A stretch of DNA of 32,000 nucleotides from the NCBI RefSeq assembly GCF_000020385.1, contig NC_010814.1, forward strand, positions 3,300,001-3,332,000, written 5' to 3'. Each line of letters starts with the position of its first letter. The stretch's first letter is position 1. This DNA is from Trichlorobacter lovleyi SZ (GTDB lineage: Bacteria; Desulfobacterota; Desulfuromonadia; Geobacterales; Pseudopelobacteraceae). Below are positions 2,495-30,349 of this stretch, in pieces. A program made the position numbers and the translations under genes. Under the pieces are notes generated by a model. It had not been told where the DNA came from. It ran no database searches and saw nothing but the letters and a program-made list of their open reading frames with translations.

Positions 2495-2698
2495 GACTCT
2501 GTGCCAGACAAGGGGAAGCGGGTGCAACTCCCGCGCTGTCCCGCAACTGTAACCATCAGACCGGATCTGATGGGAGCCAGAACACCTTTCTGACACGCGC
2601 TTCAAGGAACCTCCGGGGAAAGAGGGACCGAAGCCGTGGTCTGTTCAACATGGTTTCCGTGCCCCTGTTCCTTTTTTGGGAACAGGGGTTTTTATTTT
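2495..2698 (+). promoter_or_regulatory. Cobalamin (AdoCbl) riboswitch with a terminator expression platform
   Basis: The conserved core aaggggaagcgggtgcaactcccgcgctgtcccgcaactgtaa lies at about 2510-2552. A B12-box-like gggagccagaacacc lies at 2572-2586. An intrinsic terminator follows, directly upstream of cobU. Confidence 0.85.
2662..2698 (+). terminator. Rho-independent terminator (riboswitch OFF-state)
   Basis: Stem cccctgttcc (2662-2671) pairs with ggaacagggg (2679-2688) and is followed by tttttatttt. Confidence 0.8.
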
Positions 2699-5758: not shown

Positions 5759-5784
5759 GGCACGCGCTCACGATTCCAATTACA

Positions 5785-5888
5785 GTTCAAGGATGATAGC
5801 ACGGCGGCGAAGGGCTCGGCGACGCAGGCGTACCTGCAGTACGTCGAGAAGCCGAGGCCAAGCCAACAAAGCTAGCGCCTTGAAATGG
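5785..5888 (+). repeat. Structured repeat family, copy A (core 5803-5867)
   Basis: Collinear blocks ggcggcga, ggcgacgcaggcgtacc, cgtcgag and aagccaac are shared with the reverse complement of 24599-24664 and, more loosely, with 26781-26846. The internal hairpin is cgtac-ctgca-gtacg. The copy overlaps the last ~5 codons and stop of the 5872-8772 gene. Confidence 0.7.
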
Positions 5889-8772
5889 AATTGGACTTGC
5901 GCTGAATATCCACCGTGGTCATCAACCCCTCCGGCGTAAACGTCAGCCGGGCATTAACCCGCTCCAGCGAATTGATCAGCCGCATGGTGGCTGAACTCTG
6001 ATCACTGAAGGCCGGCTGTTTGGGATGGTAGCGGTTACCGTGGACGGAACAGACAACCGCGCCGCTGGCCTCATCCAGACGGTATGTTCCACCTGACGGG
6101 CAGTAGGGCTGATAGCCGCGCAACGCCTCGGCGGTGGAGGCGAAGCTGTCCGGCGGCAGGCCCAGATTGCGCATCAGGATCGCGGCCAGGGGAAGATTCT
6201 TCTGGCAGGCATGGCGGAGATCCTCCTGATAACCGATACTGGAGGCCTCTTCCAGCTGCTTGAAGGCGGAACGGTAGACCGACAGCTCCATGTTCCCCGC
6301 ATGTTTTTCCACCTTTTGGGTTGTTCCCTTGGCCGAGGCATCCAGCAGGTCGGTCACGATATCACGCCGGGAGGCGATCACCAGCCGGTCATTCACCACT
6401 GCGGCATAGAGCCGCAGCTTGACCACAAACAGGGTGAAGTTGGCCACGTAGACCGGCTTGCCACGATGGTTTTCCAGGCTGTAGGTCTCCAGAGAAAGCT
6501 CATCCCGGCTGGAGTTTCCGGGGCCGACGGCCTGAAACAGCGCCGGGATGGACTGTTCCGCCTTTTTAGGGTCAGTGACCTTGACGGTCAGGTAGGTCGG
6601 CAGGTTGATGGCCGAGGCCAGATAGCCGATCACCAGCGGCTCAATCGAAGATGATCGTCCCACTTCCCGTCCCAGCAGCCCTGCAGCGCGGCCATCGGCA
6701 CTGAACAGGATCTGGCCGTCACACAGGTTGATGGCGACCTCATTTCCCAGCCAGTCCAGCTGCAGGTTGTTCCGGTAGATCCGTTTGTTGCCCAGCAGAT
6801 TCTTTTCCAGCCAATCCTGGGCCATGTGTCCCCGCAGGGAGAAGACCGTCCGCGGCAGCAGGGCGCTGTCGGTAACAACGCCGGGGTTCCGGCCCGAGAA
6901 GGCGGCCAGACCGTCATACCAGGAGTTTTCAATCAACGGCAGGATGCAGGTCTGGATACGGATGTTCCGGCCCAGCTTGACCCGGATGCCGATCGGATCA
7001 AAGAACTGGGTCCAGTAGCGGTTGTAGTTCTCGACAAAGCCCTTGTACTGTGCCGCCTCTTCAGGCGTTACTGCGGCAAGTTTCAGCTCGTTCAGCGGCG
7101 TCAGTCTTCCGGGACGGTTGTGCACCGGGCAGTAGACCTCACCCCGGGCATCGATTGCGTAGGCGCCATGTTCAGGGCAGACCGGCGGGTTCTTGCCCAG
7201 ATACCCGCCTGCCACCAGTTCAGCCATGCCGGGTTCCCGCCGCCTCTCTGCCTTGAACCAGAGCCGGGCATTGGCAATCAGCCCCATGTTGGCGCTGCAC
7301 TGCATCCGGCGGGCCTCGGCAATCTTCCAGTGCGGCCCCACCAGGTTGCGGATATGGGCATCGGAAAGGTAGATGAAGATATCCTCTTCCTTGGCATCCT
7401 GGGGAAAGATGGTGCGCATGTAGCGGAAGTCATCGGCCTGGGCCAGGGCCGGCGCCTGCCGTGCCTCCACCGCCAGCACCCGCTCCAGGGCGGCCTGACT
7501 GGTGGATACCACGGCAAGGTTCTTGATGATCACGGCGTAGGACGATACCCGGCGATCGGCGGAGACCGCAGCAATAACGTTCCTGCCGTGCAGTTCCGAG
7601 ACCGACTGGACAGCACCGCGACTACGGGCAGCCTCGGCATACTGTTTTTCCAGCTGCTTGCGAAACCGGCCGGCATCCTTGAGGCTGAACAGCACGGTAA
7701 CCGCCGTCCCCTCCTTCAGAAAGGGATCGCTGCCGGTAATGGCCATATCCGCCACCACCCGGTCACCAAACATCCGTGTCAACAGGCTGTTCTCAAGACA
7801 GAGCTGCCTGCTGACCTTCTCCCGCACCTTGAAATCCTGGGCACTGCTTTCCACCTGGCGCAACAGGTTGCCGCCCCATTCGTCCATCAAGTCGGCCAGT
7901 TCGATCTGTTTGTTGATATCATTAAAGAACACGGCATACTGGTCATCAGGTATAGAGGATGCCAACAGCGGCAGCGCAGGACTCCTCCCCTTCAGCATCT
8001 CCTTGAAGGGGTGCGATTTGATCTGCGGCCCCTGCAGGCCTACAAGGCTGACAGGTTGTTCCCTGCTAGCGGCAACGCGGGCATTGGCCCCGTTCAACAG
8101 CTCCAGCTGCAGCGTCTCCTGAATCGCCGCAGCACCGGTAAAGACGCTGTAGAGGTCGGGGCTTTCGCGGCGGGAACGGTTTCTGCTACCGGGCAGCTGA
8201 GCTTCAAGGCCATAGCGGGGGGCGATCGCCAGATTCCAGTACTGGCTGTAGGCATCATCGCCCTCGGGGTCTGACCTCCAGAGCGACCATTGGTACTGCT
8301 TGGCCCACTCGCTCCTGATGGTGGCATCGCCGGTGGCATCGGCATCCGGCAGGGTAAAGGCCAGGCGCAGCAGATCACCCTTTGCGGTACGGCTCTGAAT
8401 GGCAAGCTGAGCCGGGCCGGGCTTCAGGTACCGGCCGGTAACCGTAATCATTTCTTCGGTCTGCTCAAGCCGGACCTGTCCTGCTTCGTCAGCATCCGTA
8501 TGGGTATGCCGCCCCTTTGCAGGGGTCAGCAGGTTGACGGTCACCAGAAAGATATCACCATCCTCAACCCTGGGGGTAAGTAGCAGGGGCTGCTTTGTGC
8601 TGCTCTTTGGCAACTTCGTTACAATCCGGAAATACCCCTCATCACCGTTCCTATAGATCTCCGGCACAACCGTAACAGCGGGGGGTGCGCTGATCTTGAC
8701 CGCTGCAACGGCCCCCAGGGCGGCAACGACCAACAACGCGGCCAGCAACGGCACCACTAGACGTCGAGACAT
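5872..8772 (-). CDS. Large secreted protein of unknown function (966 aa) with two pseudopilin-like Cys modules
   Basis: RBS AAAGGAG lies 6 nt upstream of the ATG at 8772, which is preferred over the ORF-track start at 8805. The signal peptide is MSRRLVVPLLAALLVVAALGAVAA. Amino-acid composition is balanced, unlike the 482-aa antisense ORF (6826-8274). An internal duplicated module is present (see findings). Confidence 0.8.
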   Translation of the reverse strand: MSRRLVVPLLAALLVVAALGAVAAVKISAPPAVTVVPEIYRNGDEGYFRIVTKLPKSSTKQPLLLTPRVEDGDIFLVTVNLLTPAKGRHTHTDADEAGQVRLEQTEEMITVTGRYLKPGPAQLAIQSRTAKGDLLRLAFTLPDADATGDATIRSEWAKQYQWSLWRSDPEGDDAYSQYWNLAIAPRYGLEAQLPGSRNRSRRESPDLYSVFTGAAAIQETLQLELLNGANARVAASREQPVSLVGLQGPQIKSHPFKEMLKGRSPALPLLASSIPDDQYAVFFNDINKQIELADLMDEWGGNLLRQVESSAQDFKVREKVSRQLCLENSLLTRMFGDRVVADMAITGSDPFLKEGTAVTVLFSLKDAGRFRKQLEKQYAEAARSRGAVQSVSELHGRNVIAAVSADRRVSSYAVIIKNLAVVSTSQAALERVLAVEARQAPALAQADDFRYMRTIFPQDAKEEDIFIYLSDAHIRNLVGPHWKIAEARRMQCSANMGLIANARLWFKAERRREPGMAELVAGGYLGKNPPVCPEHGAYAIDARGEVYCPVHNRPGRLTPLNELKLAAVTPEEAAQYKGFVENYNRYWTQFFDPIGIRVKLGRNIRIQTCILPLIENSWYDGLAAFSGRNPGVVTDSALLPRTVFSLRGHMAQDWLEKNLLGNKRIYRNNLQLDWLGNEVAINLCDGQILFSADGRAAGLLGREVGRSSSIEPLVIGYLASAINLPTYLTVKVTDPKKAEQSIPALFQAVGPGNSSRDELSLETYSLENHRGKPVYVANFTLFVVKLRLYAAVVNDRLVIASRRDIVTDLLDASAKGTTQKVEKHAGNMELSVYRSAFKQLEEASSIGYQEDLRHACQKNLPLAAILMRNLGLPPDSFASTAEALRGYQPYCPSGGTYRLDEASGAVVCSVHGNRYHPKQPAFSDQSSATMRLINSLERVNARLTFTPEGLMTTVDIQRKSNSISRR

Positions 8773-8817
8773 ATACGCTCCTTTCACCTGCACAAATTCA
8801 AACACGGGATTCCTCTT

Positions 8818-22793: not shown

Positions 22794-23921
22794 TCATCCG
22801 ACGGTCTTCCTGAAGCGCGCCACCGCCACCCCCAGCACCACTGAACCGATCACCAGCAGCATCCCGAACTGTTTCCAGAGGATCGCCAGCCCCACCCCCT
22901 TCAGGTACAGCCCACGGATGATCTCCATAAACCAGCGCACCGGGTTGATCTGGGTCAGCCACTGCACCGGCAGCGGCATGTTCTCCACCGGAAAGGCGAA
23001 GCCGGACAGCAACATGGCGATAAAGATAATGAAAAAGGCTGACATCTTGGCCTGCTGCTGGGTCTGGCTGATGGTGGAGAGGAACAGGCCGGTCCCCAGC
23101 GAACTCATCAGGAACAGGCCGGTGGCCACGATCAGCAGCGTGATGCTGCCCCGCACCGGCACCCGGAACACCAGCCAGCCCACCAGGCTGATCAGGAAGA
23201 CGTTGGCATAGCCGATCAGCACGAACGGCAGGGTCTTGCCCAGAATGAACTCGTATTTACGGATCGGGGTTACGATCACCTGCTCAATGGTGCCGATCTC
23301 CTTTTCCCGCACCACCGCCATGGCAGACAACAGCATGGTGATGATGTAGAGGATATTGGCGATCACTGCCGGTACATAGAACGGCGGACTGGCCAGATCG
23401 GGGTTGAACCAGGCCCGAGCCTCCATCCGCACCGCACCGGACAGCAACGGAAAGCCGCTGCGACCGGTCTGTTCCGTCAGCAGCCTGATGTTCTGAGCCT
23501 CGGCAAAGCGGGAGAGATAGCCCAGGATCACCCCGGCGGTGTTTGAGTCGGAACCATCCACCAACGCCTGCACGGTGGCGGCCTTGCCCGCTCCCAACTG
23601 CCCGGCCAGGCCGTGGTTGATCACCAGTGCCACCCGCACACTGCCGCTATCCAGCAGCCGGGCGGCCTGCTGCTCGTTCTCAAGCCGGATACTGTCACGG
23701 AAGTGCCCCGAGGCGAACAGCACCTGCAGCAGCTCACGGCTTTGAGGGGAGTTGTCGCGGTCGATCACTGCCGTGGGGATCTTGCGCACATCCATATTGA
23801 CCGCATAGCCGAAGATCACGGTCTGCACCATCGGCAGGATAAACAGCACCACCCGCATCCGCGGGTCGCGGAAGGTCTGGATGAACTCTTTAATCAGCAT
23901 CGCTTTCAGACGTTCGAACAT
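22794..23921 (-). CDS. ABC-2 type transporter permease (YbhR/YbhS-like), 375 aa
   Basis: The start MFERLKAMLIKEFIQTFRDPR is at 23921, 2 nt after the upstream permease stop. The 547-aa ORF-track version is an artefactual upstream extension. The protein has six TM segments. Confidence 0.85.
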   Translation of the reverse strand: MFERLKAMLIKEFIQTFRDPRMRVVLFILPMVQTVIFGYAVNMDVRKIPTAVIDRDNSPQSRELLQVLFASGHFRDSIRLENEQQAARLLDSGSVRVALVINHGLAGQLGAGKAATVQALVDGSDSNTAGVILGYLSRFAEAQNIRLLTEQTGRSGFPLLSGAVRMEARAWFNPDLASPPFYVPAVIANILYIITMLLSAMAVVREKEIGTIEQVIVTPIRKYEFILGKTLPFVLIGYANVFLISLVGWLVFRVPVRGSITLLIVATGLFLMSSLGTGLFLSTISQTQQQAKMSAFFIIFIAMLLSGFAFPVENMPLPVQWLTQINPVRWFMEIIRGLYLKGVGLAILWKQFGMLLVIGSVVLGVAVARFRKTVG

Positions 23922-23923
23922 GA

Positions 23924-25207
23924 CTACCCCAGCTTCTTCTTGAACCTGCGCACAGAGATCCCCAAAATCAACAGGGCGAAGCCCAGCAGGAACAGGGCCT
24001 GGGGCCAGAGTACCCCTAGCCCGACATCTTTCAGGTAGATCCCTCGCAGGATGTTGACAAAGTAGCGGGCCACCACGATATGGCTGACCGCCTGGATCGG
24101 GGCCGGCATGTTCTCCAGCGGAAAGATGAAACCGGACAGCAGAAAGGCAGGCAGCACCGTCACCAACAGAGCCAGTTGACTGGCCAGCAGCTGGCTCTTG
24201 GCAATGATGCTGATCAGCATCCCCACTGCCAGCGCCCCCACCAGGAACAGTAGCGACAGGGCAGAGAGCAGCAGCAGACTGCCTTTCAACGGCACACTGA
24301 ACACGAAATAACCGACCCCCACCGACAGCAGCAGGTCCACCACCCCGATGCAGAAATAGGGGGCCAGCTTGCCGATGATCAGCTCCCACTTGCGCACCGG
24401 CATGGTCACGATCTGCTCCATGGTGCCGGTCTCCCACTCCCGTGCCATGCTGAGCGAGGTCAACAGCGCCGCCACGATCATCATGATCACCGGGATCAGG
24501 CCAGGGAAGATGAAGTTTCTCGATACCAGGTCGGTGTTGAACCAGACTCGGGGCCTGATCTCAAGCTGTGGTGAGGCCATATCCGGCCGGATACGTTCGT
24601 TGGCTTCGTCGGGTCCTCCTCGACGTGCTGCTCGGTACGCCTGCGTCGCCCCCTCCTCGCCGCCTGCTTCTCCGACCGCCTCTGACCTCACTATAACGGT
24701 TTGTTTCGTATAGTTACGTTGCAACTGCTGGATAACTATCTGGCGCGACCAGGTCAGTATGATCGCCTCGGCATAGCCCTGGGCGATGGTGGCGGTGCTG
24801 GGGTCGCTGCCGTCCAGGATCACCTGCAGGCTTGGGCTGTCCCCGGTCTCCAGCCGGTTGGCAAAATCAGGCGGGATCACCAGGGCGATCAACGCCTCAC
24901 GCCGGTCCACCGCCCGTTCCAGGTCGGCGTAGGACAGGGCATGGGAGCGAAGTGAGAAGTAGCGCGAGCCCTCAAACCTGCTGATCAGCTCCCGGCTCTG
25001 GCTGGTACCACTCTGGTCCCAGACCGCCAGTGGTACCCGATCCACATCCAGAGTCAGGGCGTAGCCGAACAGAAACAACATGATCAGCGGCATCAGAATA
25101 CCCAGCGCCAGACTGCGCGGGTCCCGCAGCACATGCAGAAATTCCTTGCGCCCCACTGCGCTGATCCGCCGCAGAGAGGCGTTTGCCACAGAGGACACAG
25201 AGTTCAT
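23924..25207 (-). CDS. ABC-2 type transporter permease (YbhS/YbhR-like), 427 aa, carrying a repeat-derived insertion
   Basis: It is a paralogue of the downstream permease (RKEFLHVLRDPRS, WFNTDL, six TM segments). Its start overlaps the ATPase stop (ATGA). The extra G/E/A/R-rich segment coincides with repeat copy B. Confidence 0.85.
   Translation of the reverse strand: MNSVSSVANASLRRISAVGRKEFLHVLRDPRSLALGILMPLIMLFLFGYALTLDVDRVPLAVWDQSGTSQSRELISRFEGSRYFSLRSHALSYADLERAVDRREALIALVIPPDFANRLETGDSPSLQVILDGSDPSTATIAQGYAEAIILTWSRQIVIQQLQRNYTKQTVIVRSEAVGEAGGEEGATQAYRAARRGGPDEANERIRPDMASPQLEIRPRVWFNTDLVSRNFIFPGLIPVIMMIVAALLTSLSMAREWETGTMEQIVTMPVRKWELIIGKLAPYFCIGVVDLLLSVGVGYFVFSVPLKGSLLLLSALSLLFLVGALAVGMLISIIAKSQLLASQLALLVTVLPAFLLSGFIFPLENMPAPIQAVSHIVVARYFVNILRGIYLKDVGLGVLWPQALFLLGFALLILGISVRRFKKKLG
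24575..24700 (-). repeat. Structured repeat family, copy B (core 24599-24664), inside a coding sequence
   Basis: The reverse complement shares ggcggcga, the exact 17-mer ggcgacgcaggcgtacc (24634-24650 against 5818-5834), cgtcgag and aagccaac with copy A, in the same order and spacing. Confidence 0.7.
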
Positions 25208-26739
25208 CAGGTTCCTCCTTCCTGCGCGTCCCGCTGCTCGATCAGGTCGATGAAGACCTGCTCCAGGCTGGGCAGCAGACCGTCCACGGCTTGTTGCCGC
25301 TTCAGCTCCAACGGTGTACCGACTGCCACCAGCTCACCCCGGTAGATCAGGGCCAGCCGGTCGCAGTACTCAGCCTCGTCCATGTAGTGGGTCGTCACGA
25401 AGATCGTCACCCCTTCGGAAGCCAGGTTGTGAATCAGTTGCCAGAAACGGCGGCGGTTGAGTGGATCGACCCCGGCGGTCGGTTCATCCAGAAAGATGAT
25501 CGGCGGGCGGTGCAGCAGGGCACAGCCCAGGGCCAGGCGCTGCCGCCAGCCGGCGGAGAGTTCACCGGCTTTGGAATTGCGACGTTCAGTCAGTCCGGCC
25601 ATCTCAATGACCCAATCAGCCCGTTCGGCCAGTTCTTTTGCAGGCAAACGGTAGATGCCACCGTAAAAGGCAATATTCTCTGCCACAGTCAGGTCTTCGT
25701 AGAGCGAGAACTTTTGACTCATGTAGCCGATGTTCTCCTTGATCAGCTCGGCCTGACCGGCAACATCGAAACCGGCCACCATCCCGTTGCCGCTGCTCGG
25801 CTCCAGGATACCGCACAGCATCCGGATGGTGGTGGATTTACCGGCCCCGTTGGGGCCCAGGAAACCGAAGATCTCCCCCTTGGGCACGGTCAGGCTGATG
25901 CTGTTGACCGCCACGAAATCGCCGAAGCAACGGGTCAGACCGGCAAGCGTCACTGCCGGGGCTGCTGCGTGCAGTTCCGGCGCAGGACGCCGCCTGACCG
26001 CAGTATCGGCCCCTTTTCCCAGCACTGTGATAAAGACATCCTCAAGAGTCGGATTCTGGATGGCCGGATCTGCCAGCGCTTTCAGGTTCTGCGGCCGGTC
26101 GCAGGCCAACAGCCTGCCATGGTGCAACAGCCCCACCCGGTGGCAGCGCTCGGCCTCATCCAGATAGGCGGTGGCTACCATGATGGTAACCCCTTCCGCC
26201 AGCAGGGTGTCAAGGATGCGCCAGAAATCGCGGCGCGAAACCGGATCGACGCCGTTGGTCGGCTCATCCAGAAACAGCACTTGGGGGGTGTGGATCAGGG
26301 CGCAGCACAGCCCCAGCTTCTGCTTCATCCCGCCGGACAACGCCCCGGCCCTGCGTTTGGTGAAGGGAGTCAAGCCGCTCATCGCCAGCAACCGCTCGGC
26401 CCGGGCGGTCCATTCGGCCTTGGGAACACCGAAAATATCTGCGTGGAAGCGGATATTTTCCATCACAGTCAGATCAGGGTAAAGCCCGAAGCGCTGGCTC
26501 ATATAGCCGATCCGGGAACGGACCGGCTCCAGGTCATGGCAGGGAAAACCCAGCACCGTGGCATCACCGCTGCCGGCATCCAGTACCCCGGTCAGCATCC
26601 GCAGGGTGGTGGTCTTGCCGGCGCCATCTGATCCGACCAGACCGAACAGCTCACCCTTGGGGATGCTAAGGTCAAGACCATCCACAGCGGTCAGTGCGCC
26701 AAAGCGTTTGGTGAGATTGGAGAGTTCAATAGCATTCAT
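25207..26739 (-). CDS. ABC transporter ATP-binding protein with duplicated ATPase domains (YbhF-like)
   Basis: Two Walker A motifs (GSDGAGKTT, GPNGAGKST) and two signature motifs (LSGGMKQK, LSAGWRQR) are present. The ATG is at 26739; a TTG one codon upstream is possible. The 482-aa antisense ORF is shadow. Confidence 0.9.
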   Translation of the reverse strand: MNAIELSNLTKRFGALTAVDGLDLSIPKGELFGLVGSDGAGKTTTLRMLTGVLDAGSGDATVLGFPCHDLEPVRSRIGYMSQRFGLYPDLTVMENIRFHADIFGVPKAEWTARAERLLAMSGLTPFTKRRAGALSGGMKQKLGLCCALIHTPQVLFLDEPTNGVDPVSRRDFWRILDTLLAEGVTIMVATAYLDEAERCHRVGLLHHGRLLACDRPQNLKALADPAIQNPTLEDVFITVLGKGADTAVRRRPAPELHAAAPAVTLAGLTRCFGDFVAVNSISLTVPKGEIFGFLGPNGAGKSTTIRMLCGILEPSSGNGMVAGFDVAGQAELIKENIGYMSQKFSLYEDLTVAENIAFYGGIYRLPAKELAERADWVIEMAGLTERRNSKAGELSAGWRQRLALGCALLHRPPIIFLDEPTAGVDPLNRRRFWQLIHNLASEGVTIFVTTHYMDEAEYCDRLALIYRGELVAVGTPLELKRQQAVDGLLPSLEQVFIDLIEQRDAQEGGT

Positions 26740-26764
26740 CAAGACCAGTCCAGGCGATGTCAGA

Positions 26765-26868
26765 ATTCAGATGATACCAAGGCGGTGAGGAGCAATCGAC
26801 GCAGGCATAGTTAAGCGCTATGTCGAGGAGTTTTCGACGAACCAACGCCGGTAGCGCTGGATTATGGC
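26765..26868 (+). repeat. Structured repeat family, copy C (core 26781-26846)
   Basis: Blocks are ggcggtga, cgacgcaggc, gtcgaggag, cgacgaaccaac. The hairpin is catag-ttaagcg-ctatg, compensatory relative to copy A. It fills the spacer between the adaptor and ATPase genes and contains the adaptor gene's stop codon. Confidence 0.65.
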
Positions 26869-27845
26869 ATCGTAATCACCGCATCCACCGGCATGCCCGG
26901 CTTCAGTTCCTGCTTCGGATTGGCAATCGTGACCTTGATACGATAGACCAGCTTGACCCGTTCAGCCTCGGTCTGTACGTTGCGCGGGGTGAATTCGGCC
27001 TCGGAGGCTATGAAGCTGACCGTGCCCTGATAGGTGCGCCCCTTCCAGGTATCACTGCTGACGGAAACCTGCTGACCCAGCTTAATCTTGCCCAACTGGG
27101 GCTCCGGCAGGAAGGCCCGCACCCAGACCTCGTCGAGACGGGCCACAGTGATCACCGGGCTGCCGGCAGCCAGCAGCTCACCCGGCTCGGCATGTTTAGC
27201 AAGCACCGTACCGTTGAGCGGAGCGGCCAGCACCGCCTGGGACAAGCGGATATCGGCCAGTGAACGGGATGCCGTTGCCCCTTCCAGGCGGGCCCGGGCG
27301 GCCCGCACCGCGTCAGGCCGGGGACCGGCCTTGGCCAGCTGCAGGCGCTGTTCTGCCTCACGCACCGCCGCAGCGGCAGCATCCCTGACTGCCCGGGCAG
27401 CATCCAGCTCCTTGCGGGGAATCACCTCTTTCCTGAACAACGCCTCGGCCCGGACAGCATCCTGGGCGGCCCGCTCTGATTCGGCCTTGAGCCGGGCAAG
27501 GGTGGCAGCAGTGGCGGCAATCTCCTCCTGGCGGCTACCGGCCCTCAGGTCGGCAAGCACAGCCTGAGCTGCCTGTTGATCAGCGGCACGGGCCAAACGC
27601 TCGTCCTTCAGCTCGTCATCCTCCAGCCGGGCTACAACCTGACCGGCCCTGACCTGCTGCCCTTCATCCACCAACCGTTCTTTGAGACGGCCCGGCACCT
27701 TGAATGAAACCGCTACCGTGGTGGCCTCTATCGTGCCGGTTAGCCTGAGCCTCCCGTTGGCAGCCTGCGTACGGCGCATAACCATTACAGCCAGCACTCC
27801 CAGCACCAAAACAGCAAGCAGACCAATCAGTACCTTTTTTTTCAT
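26862..27845 (-). CDS. HlyD-family periplasmic adaptor (YbhG-like), 327 aa
   Basis: RBS AAAGGGAG precedes the ATG at 27845. The N-terminal TM anchor is MKKKVLIGLLAVLVLGVLAVMV. An Ala/Arg/Glu-rich coiled-coil hairpin and a beta-barrel C-terminus are present. Confidence 0.85.
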   Translation of the reverse strand: MKKKVLIGLLAVLVLGVLAVMVMRRTQAANGRLRLTGTIEATTVAVSFKVPGRLKERLVDEGQQVRAGQVVARLEDDELKDERLARAADQQAAQAVLADLRAGSRQEEIAATAATLARLKAESERAAQDAVRAEALFRKEVIPRKELDAARAVRDAAAAAVREAEQRLQLAKAGPRPDAVRAARARLEGATASRSLADIRLSQAVLAAPLNGTVLAKHAEPGELLAAGSPVITVARLDEVWVRAFLPEPQLGKIKLGQQVSVSSDTWKGRTYQGTVSFIASEAEFTPRNVQTEAERVKLVYRIKVTIANPKQELKPGMPVDAVITMP

Positions 27846-30261: not shown

Positions 30262-30349
30262 GGAGGGGTGTCCGAGAGGTCGAAGGTGACAGACTCGAAA
30301 TCTGTTGTACCGCAAGGTACCCAGGGTTCGAATCCCTGCCCCTCCGCCA
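30262..30349 (+). tRNA. tRNA-Ser (anticodon CGA)
   Basis: I folded this by hand. The acceptor is ggagggg/cccctcc. The anticodon stem is acaga/tctgt with loop ctCGAaa. The long variable arm is tgtaccgcaaggtacc. The T-arm is cagggttcgaatccctg, and the 3' CCA is encoded. Confidence 0.9.

Follow-up and report, generated by a model that had tools for sequence, protein, structure and literature searches.

Known palindromic repeats and the repeat of the window

The closest described relatives of the repeat considered here are 24 predicted (regulatory) short RNA elements of Geobacter metallireducens, Gmet_R1001-R1024 (group 1), which are multicopy sequences of about 113 nt with a central palindrome and were listed alongside GSU0160.1 of G. 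sulfurreducens (Aklujkar et al. 2009, PMC2700814). All Gmet_R10xx copies were reported to lie between genes, for the most part 5' of them, and were taken to be regulatory RNAs; their mobility, target duplications, spread across phyla and intragenic copies were not reported in that description (PMC2700814). The family was listed in 2009 and never characterized afterwards. We analyzed a stretch of 32,000 nucleotides (nt) from Trichlorobacter lovleyi SZ (contig NC_010814.1, positions 3,300,001-3,332,000 of the forward strand; hereafter, the window) that contains three copies, A, B and C, of a repeat of the same family. Copy B lies in the coding sequence of an ABC-2 permease, and we are fairly confident that it is a non-autonomous hairpin repeat of the MITE type (miniature inverted-repeat transposable element), a member of the Gmet_R10xx family that entered this coding sequence.

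That the window repeat and Gmet_R10xx are one family is shown by sequence matches: Gmet_R1010 matches the window-type profile at model positions 13-114 (E=1e-11), nearly its full length, R1013 (6e-08), R1015 (1e-06), R1003 (5e-06) and R1021 match the core CGCAGGCGTAG...CTACGTCGAGGA, and the central palindrome GRCGTAGC...GCTACGYC is shared. Most of the G. metallireducens copies, however, are a variant with TTGTGCGCGTAGC...GCTACGCCTCCGCG that scores weakly or not at all against this profile and, in contrast to those intergenic copies, copy B is intragenic.

The Rickettsia palindromic elements (RPEs) resemble copy B in being palindromes of about 100-150 nt that lie in frame in unrelated genes, have orthologues without them, leave the host intact and occupy sites where loops are expected (Ogata et al. 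2000, as summarized in PMC10969869). In that summary, RPEs are mostly intragenic, occupy dozens of genes per genome and are found in Rickettsia only, whereas the window family, which shows no sequence relation to them, occurs in many phyla and in three host genes. In-frame insertions are likewise known for ERIC, BOX, Coxiella QMITE1 and the MITEs of Anabaena (PMC10969869, PMC3184786), and intragenic multicopy families have been described in other Geobacter genomes (GGGACCG x4 in G. metallireducens and a G. bemidjiensis family), although these are tandem heptanucleotides and not hairpins (PMC2700814, PMC2996986). The original prediction for this stretch, which had called in-frame colonization by palindromic repeats rare outside Rickettsia, was thus too strong on this point. 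In-frame repeat insertion is already known; what this case adds is the mobility of the family, its spread across phyla, its recurrent insertion into linkers in the same frame and a set of filled, empty and partly deleted alleles.

Bacterial MITEs (Correia/NEMIS, ERIC, Nezha, Chunjie) share with the window family small size, lack of coding capacity, multiple copies, terminal inverted repeats, target duplications (in the window family, at copies from other genomes), a hairpin fold and occasional fusion to open reading frames (ORFs) (PMC3184786, PMC10969869). Classical MITEs, however, have conserved ends that match a known insertion sequence (IS), whereas the window family has a conserved centre, lineage-specific ends and no parent IS in the flanks of 120 loci. 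Chunjie, a MITE of Geobacter uraniireducens, was considered as the same element and excluded on its published properties: it is 178-235 bp long and rich in AT, its inverted repeats measure 21 bp, and its direct repeats 9 bp. REP and REPIN sequences are likewise imperfect palindromes that fold into long hairpins and occur in many copies, most of them extragenic; in contrast to the TNA and CTAG duplications and the lack of a recurrent neighbour at 120 loci in the window family, they leave no duplicated target and are accompanied by a RAYT gene. The repeat is no local palindrome but belongs to a MITE-like family distributed across phyla, which the original prediction had not recognized.

The repeat copy in the permease gene

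The core pattern that we used for scanning, CGACGCAGGCRTA-N6-16-GTCGAGRAG, matches the window three times, at 5820-5851 (+), 24616-24648 (-) and 26797-26830 (+), and has no match in 100 dinucleotide shuffles of the window. Sensitive self-comparison delineates copies A (about 5798-5870) and C (26780-26847), as well as copy B (24596-24668), which is in the opposite orientation, sense to the permease. The full extents, obtained by blastn and by nhmmer with a profile built from 30 family members, are 5773-5898, 24570-24695 and 26752-26879 (nhmmer E=4e-25 to 9e-21), and the elements of the window measure 117-134 nt; the same profile detects no fourth copy in the window.

Copy B is a full-length, 121-nt hairpin element (24571-24691, minus strand; nhmmer E=9e-21) that lies in frame in permease 1 and encodes its residues V173-S212 (VRSEAVGEAGGEEGATQAYRAARRGGPDEANERIRPDMAS). 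Its terminal inverted-repeat arms, 21 nt each and 76% complementary, occupy 24671-24691 (-) on the 5' side in the element orientation (GTGAGGTCAGAGGCGGTCGGA) and 24571-24591 (-) on the 3' side (TCCGGCCGGATATGGCCTCAC). Between them lies an apical core of 33 nt (24616-24648, minus strand), CGACGCAGGCGTAC-CGAGCAG-CACGTCGAGGAG, which is an exact match to the pattern, and the RNA of the element folds into a single long hairpin (-52.6 kcal/mol, z=-4.07). The original prediction had equated the extra protein stretch exactly with a repeat core at 24599-24664; the stretch is indeed encoded by the repeat, but the element is longer on both sides.

The host gene, permease 1 (23924-25207, minus strand; 427 aa), encodes a YbhS/YbhR-like ABC-2 permease with a large ectodomain (PF12698, E=2e-49; TM1-ectodomain-TM2-6 topology in the structural model, where TM denotes a transmembrane helix). 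It is followed by permease 2 (22794-23921, minus strand; start deduced from the gene call for its orthologue in L121), a paralogue without the insert. The two proteins share 35% identity and can be aligned throughout, except for about 42 extra residues of permease 1 that fall directly before the RVWFNTDL motif. The closest orthologue without the insert, P0004 (387 aa, locus L121), is 96% identical to permease 1 at the amino acid level in the aligned columns and 93.8% identical at the DNA level, and reads ...QQLQRRAPQAVSAPQLEVRPRVWF at this site; against it, permease 1 has exactly 40 extra residues, that is, a net gain of 120 nt. Thus, the alignment with orthologues that had been proposed as a check finds the segment missing from a protein 96% identical to the host. 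The main claim of the original prediction, a palindromic repeat copy in frame within a YbhR/YbhS-type ABC-2 permease that adds about 35-40 residues ahead of the WFN motif, is borne out by the three copies, the profile match, the open frame and these two length comparisons.

A native, lineage-specific expansion of a low-complexity loop, with only incidental similarity to the repeat, could be suspected given that the length of the loop varies among orthologues and that its position also hosts other expansions rich in Gly and Pro. This explanation is effectively refuted: copy B matches the 30-copy profile over its full length (E=9e-21) and retains both the terminal inverted repeats and the hairpin, the 96%-identical P0004 does not contain the segment, and the same nucleotide element is intergenic in more than 100 loci of other phyla.

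We collected orthologues of permease 1 from Trichlorobacter-like Geobacteraceae and compared the length of the loop across 80 of them. The segment is carried only by the closest orthologues, namely, P0001 (100% identity, 7 contigs), P0002 (427 aa) and P0003 (415 aa), whereas the same loop usually has 30-32 residues in about 70 further orthologues. The metagenome contigs L127 and L129 are identical to the window across the insert region, and because these contigs are independent, the filled sequence is not an assembly artefact; L128, L122 and L123 are further filled alleles. The only indel seen is in L122 (P0003), where an in-frame deletion of 36 nt removes the left half of the core.

Comparison with L121, L122 and L123 also shows that the insertion was not clean, which corrects the original prediction: 24 nt of ancestral host sequence, CGTGCTCCGCAGGCCGTGTCGGCA (RAPQAVSA), are replaced by an AT-rich 24 nt, AACTATACGAAACAAACCGTTATA (NYTKQTVI; 24692-24715, minus strand), followed by the 121-nt element. 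By our own count on this alignment, the AT-rich 24 nt match the empty allele at 5 of 24 bases; they have a GC content of 29% in a gene of about 60% GC and contain a small inverted repeat, AACTATA/TATAGTT. Among the filled alleles, the AT-rich 24 nt are about 58% identical and the element about 96% identical.

A foreign hairpin of 121 nt in a gene for a membrane protein could well be harmful, and permease 1 might accordingly be a disrupted, decaying pseudogene. This is highly improbable and is contradicted by several lines of evidence. The reading frame is open across 427 codons, the only indel is in frame, and the start/stop overlaps of permease 1 with its operon neighbours are intact. Outside the insert, every pair of alleles gives a ratio of nonsynonymous to synonymous substitution rates (dN/dS) of 0.09-0.11, also where both are filled and separated by a synonymous divergence (dS) of about 0.35. 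Because dN/dS is about 0.1, several alleles are intact and the deletion is in frame, permease 1 is under purifying selection and is no pseudogene; judging from these sequence comparisons, the host gene of copy B apparently remains functional. The tolerance of the insertion that had been anticipated is likewise in line with the low dN/dS and the several intact alleles. The tryptic peptide SEAVGEAGGEEGATQAYR would be diagnostic of the full-length permease 1 product.

The history of the alleles is not a simple one. Measured by dS, the window permease stands nearer to the empty L121 (0.18) than to L122 and L123, which are filled (0.35-0.38), and yet a run of about 34 nt immediately downstream of the element is the same in the window and in L122. 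Because the window allele is closest to L121 but matches L122 beside the element, the filled patch has moved between lineages by recombination. By a count on the alignment, 5 of the 121 positions of the element distinguish the window from L123, whereas the whole gene differs at 10.6%. Since the alleles are mosaic, we did not take this low divergence of the element as a sign of purifying selection on structure.

The insert in the protein and the other copies in the window

In an AlphaFold model built from the 80-sequence alignment (mean predicted local distance difference test score, pLDDT, of 76.5), TM1 spans residues 30-53, a mixed alpha/beta ectodomain extends from 58 to about 166, a long helix covers 136-178, a strand lies at 216-221, and TM2 at 230-260. 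The pLDDT drops to 49-64 across residues ~171-210. Foldseek matches the model to the insect ABCH-9C transporter (E=3e-10), with the ectodomain between TM1 and TM2, and also to 3cni, an ABC-2 ectodomain. The model and these fold matches support the placement of the insert in a low-confidence loop that would end the extracytoplasmic domain just before TM2, where the original prediction had put it, at the end of the extracytoplasmic loop after TM1. The 40-residue loop, acidic and Gly-rich, is probably disordered. The comparison of alleles supports the view that the transporter tolerates the insert, which may well be neutral.

The same loop accommodates other sequences as well. In other orthologue clades, a different GC-rich palindrome (CCCCCCCTGAATCAGGGGGGG plus GGTGCCCGACAGGGTGGGGG) lies in frame at this position; its loci are L124 (~790-880), L125 (~5810-5870) and L126 (~6470-6550), and the sequence CCCCCCCTGTCTCCCCCCCTGAATCAGGGGGGGAGACAGGGGG... 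translates as PPLSPPLNQGG... / PPPESGGGARQGGGG. Among the loci compared, this second palindrome is present only in those permease genes and thus gives no sign of being multicopy. Yet other orthologues carry a third type of expansion at the same loop. The linker before TM2 is an insertion hot spot.

Permease 1 belongs to an operon of four genes (22.8-27.9 kb, minus strand). Besides the two permeases, it comprises a gene for an HlyD/YbhG-like membrane-fusion protein (26862-~27842, minus strand; PF16576 and PF13437; start uncertain) and one for a YbhF-like ABC ATPase with tandem domains (25207-26739, minus strand; PF00005 twice; start inferred from the alignment of relatives). In L122, an additional gene with a PDDEXK_3 domain (PF13366; 5639-6004), not found in the window, lies between the ABC ATPase and permease 1. 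Elsewhere in the window, there is a cobalamin riboswitch aptamer (RF00174, 40.1 bits; 2513-2586, plus strand) upstream of the ORFs from 2716 onward and a tRNA-Ser (CGA) at 30262-30349 (+).

The other two copies of the repeat are intergenic. Copy C (26752-26879, plus strand; nhmmer E=8e-23) lies between the HlyD-family and ATPase genes, antisense to the operon, such that the stop and last codons of the HlyD-family gene sit within its outer stem. It is also present in L121 and L122. In L125 (3790-3820), about 108 nt of copy C are deleted and the 3' ~23 nt (GGCAGCGCTGGATTACGG...) are left; because this remnant persists, the end of the HlyD-family gene is element-derived. L125 was considered as an empty site for copy C and rejected, since the 3' end of the element is kept and the locus is therefore a deletion derivative. 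Copy A (5773-5898, plus strand; nhmmer E=4e-25) is flanked by convergent ORFs and extends over the stop codon of one of 977 aa (5872-8805, minus strand), an unannotated, putative gene with no Pfam or NCBIfam match. Copy B is free of stop codons in four of the six frames, compared with one of six for each of copies A and C, which are stop-rich because their AT-rich outer stems hold TAA, TAG and TGA.

The repeat family, its mobility and its other intragenic copies

Scanning one genome per species with the core pattern yields at least 120 loci. The hosts, among the matches listed, include Deltaproteobacteria (Geobacteraceae, Syntrophus), Acidobacteriota (Thermoanaerobaculia), Nitrospira, Planctomycetota, Gemmatimonadota, Myxococcota, Spirochaetaceae, a Sporomusaceae metagenome-assembled genome (MAG), and others. 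No viral contig or plasmid matches the family. In other phyla, the element attains lengths of some 190 nt and above. Copies that share a genome are nearly identical: there are at least 12 in MAG VGTG01, several of them at contig ends, and at least 7 in the chromosome OY761158. Many copies lie at the extreme ends of MAG contigs (L021, L037, L038, L040, L042, L053 and others). Because copies so often end contigs, the family evidently breaks short-read assemblies, and it is probably under-counted.

When copies from one genome are aligned with each other, sharp inverted ends with flanking duplications become apparent. In MAG CAVTQE01, the target duplications are TAA/TAA, TAA/TAA, TGA/TGA and TCA/TCA; the Syntrophus-type copies have TTA, TAA and TGA duplications; and CTAG is found on both sides in VGTG01 and in OY761158, the complete chromosome of a member of Thermoanaerobaculia. 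Pairs such as TGA/TGA and TCA/TCA are direct rather than inverted, so that they represent a duplicated target and not an extension of the inverted repeats. Duplications of 3-base TNA and 4-base CTAG targets are typical of DDE transposases of the IS5 family and of PIF/Harbinger. Cut-and-paste transposition of the IS5/Harbinger DDE type would account for the mobility of the family.

The family also has further properties of MITEs, namely, a size below about 300 bp without coding capacity of its own, terminal inverted repeats, and many copies at non-orthologous sites. However, clustering of 2024 neighbouring ORFs in the 8-kb flanks of 120 loci reveals no transposase or other recurrent linked gene, only generic clusters (sensor kinases, sigma-54 activators, ABC ATPases). 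A scan of Rfam 15 gives no hit at the three window copies under the gathering thresholds or in five well-formed loci at E<=1, and a literature search with the core sequence returned only unrelated primers and microRNAs.

The structure of the element is conserved in an unusual manner: the ends, which form a long outer stem, differ between lineages yet stay complementary, whereas the apex is almost invariant. In an alignment of 30 sequences, 92.5% of the cells are paired, compared with 28-45% in slid controls, there are 111 compensatory cells vs 32 in shuffles, and all 9 of the 9 pairs of the outer stem show double changes. The invariant apex consists of a 7-bp stem, GGCRUAC/GUAYGUC, flanked by purine-rich internal loops, namely, GCA/GA and C-GA-C facing G-GA-G. 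Beyond these, a motif resembling AAGG occupies the 5' side in 54-63% of the copies (control 22%), with AAC(G/A) across from it on the 3' side (79%; control 8%). With a spacer of 9-13 nt between the arms, the family as such is not protein-coding.

Intragenic copies are rare but recurrent. Among 123 core matches sampled, only one, copy B of the window, lies in frame in a real gene; the ORFs that span matches in L003, L084 and L094 were rejected as Arg/Pro-rich antisense artefacts or as the upstream prolongation of a genuine BirA-like gene. When metagenomes were scanned for the subfamily in particular, the permease alleles were recovered and a second host came to light, a YhaM-family 3'-5' exoribonuclease (HD and OB-fold domains). 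The copy in this gene, 121 nt long and 74% identical to copy B, lies in a C-terminal linker, in the same frame, and reads EGAGGEEGTTQAYTDVRRGAPDAANARIQANPVSP; it was found at L130 1995-2103, L131 4441-4549, L105 6696-6813 and L133 ~1450-1570. It shows compensatory GCGAGG/CCTCGC changes in the terminal arms and, like copy B, is stop-free in four of the six frames. YhaM orthologues without the element exist, and the L133 allele has an in-frame deletion of 42 nt in the core. The native sequence at the left junction in YhaM, GCCGAGGC, resembles the end of the element.

An exhaustive phmmer search with the 40-residue insert peptide against 1.84 billion representative proteins identified one further protein, a 2-oxoacid dehydrogenase E2 acyltransferase (P0241; L134 652-757), in which the copy, again in the same frame, lies in the linker that connects the E3-binding domain to the catalytic one and reads GGKEGATQAYDLVRRGVPDEANEGRRPD. 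The DNA of this locus matches the family as well (nhmmer E=1e-25), so that the only other protein in the database with such a segment carries the repeat, rather than being a distant orthologue with a homologous segment that lacks the nucleotide signature, which the original prediction had named as contrary evidence.

Altogether, there are three host genes, in different assemblies, and no single genome has many of its genes colonized. Each of the three intragenic copies is sense to its host, uses the same frame and falls in a flexible linker. Given four open frames, the three-fold agreement of frame has a probability of about 0.06 by chance and is no more than suggestive. The other sense frame is exceedingly rich in Arg, and this may account for the preference.

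The events at the permease locus that we favour would be the following. A MITE-like element entered the variable linker that joins the long helix to the last strand preceding TM2, in the orientation and frame that reads GGEEGATQAY...RRGGPDEANE, in which copy B has no stop codon. Together with the 24-nt replacement, the 121-nt element would give the net gain of 120 nt that keeps the frame, and the product would acquire an acidic, Gly-rich loop of 40 residues outside the membrane, which the transporter would tolerate. The filled allele would then have spread among related Trichlorobacter-like lineages by homologous recombination. For copy B itself, transposition would be the mechanism of entry.

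Several observations weigh against this scenario. No target duplication is visible at any of the window copies A, B and C, and the flanks of copy B, with ATA or CTA on the left vs CAC or CTC on the right, contain no recognizable one. Simple transposition does not explain the exchange of 24 nt of host sequence for unrelated AT-rich DNA, and 121 nt is not a multiple of three, so that an extra adjustment is required for the frame. Neither an autonomous partner nor a transposase turned up in the 8-kb flanks of the 120 loci. The centre of the element is conserved and its ends are variable, whereas the reverse is expected of a MITE driven by a transposase. Finally, given that the window allele is nearer to the empty L121, its history includes recombination and not vertical descent alone.

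Some of these difficulties would be met if the segment, along with the AT-rich 24 nt, had been pasted into the gene from another copy by illegitimate or microhomology-mediated recombination or repair and had then spread by homologous recombination. The missing target duplication at copy B, the replaced host DNA and the mosaic alleles all fit such an origin, and the native junctions resemble the ends of the element in the permease (GCCTCA vs TCGGCA) and in YhaM (GCCGAGGC vs GCGAGGCC). However, the element is full-length between its inverted repeats, and its 121 nt equal the length of the YhaM copy, as transposition predicts; other members of the family have clean target duplications; and an old insertion in a fast-evolving loop would lose its duplication by mutation. 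We therefore regard this route as improbable.

A different question is what maintains copy B in the gene. The element might be retained in the permease mRNA for its structure as RNA or single-stranded DNA (ssDNA), involved in processing, stability or protein binding, with the peptide as a by-product, a possibility that is compatible with insertion of a MITE-type repeat. The hairpin is kept within the coding sequence (z=-4.07), the element has diverged between the window and L123 far less than the gene (5 of 121 positions vs 10.6%), the apical core and the internal loops keep their sequence across phyla, the intragenic copies are sense in all three cases, and the curators of G. metallireducens annotated the family as predicted regulatory short RNAs. 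Nevertheless, L122 and the YhaM gene of L133 have lost parts of the core (36 and 42 nt, respectively) with the genes intact, so that the structure is dispensable there; recent recombination, reflected in the ~34 nt identical between the window and L122, can account for the low divergence of the element; and no Rfam family matches the three copies or the five loci. On balance, retention for the structure seems unlikely.

A broader and still tentative possibility, which we consider rather unlikely, is that the repeat, instead of being just a junk MITE, is a horizontally transmitted vehicle for a functional, structured 33-nt module, with tandem G.A pairs and asymmetric purine loops, that binds, as RNA or ssDNA, a conserved factor of the cell or of transposition, the intragenic copies being doubly constrained or co-opted as linkers. 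The module is conserved from Geobacteraceae to Acidobacteriota, Nitrospirota and Planctomycetota, and the intragenic frame is always ...GATQAY...RRG.PDEAN.... A functional RNA or ssDNA module would fit the conservation of the centre rather than of the ends.

With copy B as a MITE-type repeat that became part of the permease, the locus provides a clean, datable case, outside Rickettsia, of a mobile hairpin repeat turning into a protein segment. The filled, empty and partly deleted natural alleles, together with the three unrelated hosts, make the system useful for studying selfish DNA as a source of peptides and the positions at which proteins tolerate them. The family, which is absent from Rfam, is now seen across many phyla of anaerobic and groundwater bacteria; it breaks metagenome assemblies and can mislead gene callers into longer "novel" loops or spurious ORFs. 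If the reading of the repeat as a carrier of a structured module is true, it would represent an unrecognized, widespread class of mobile structured element.

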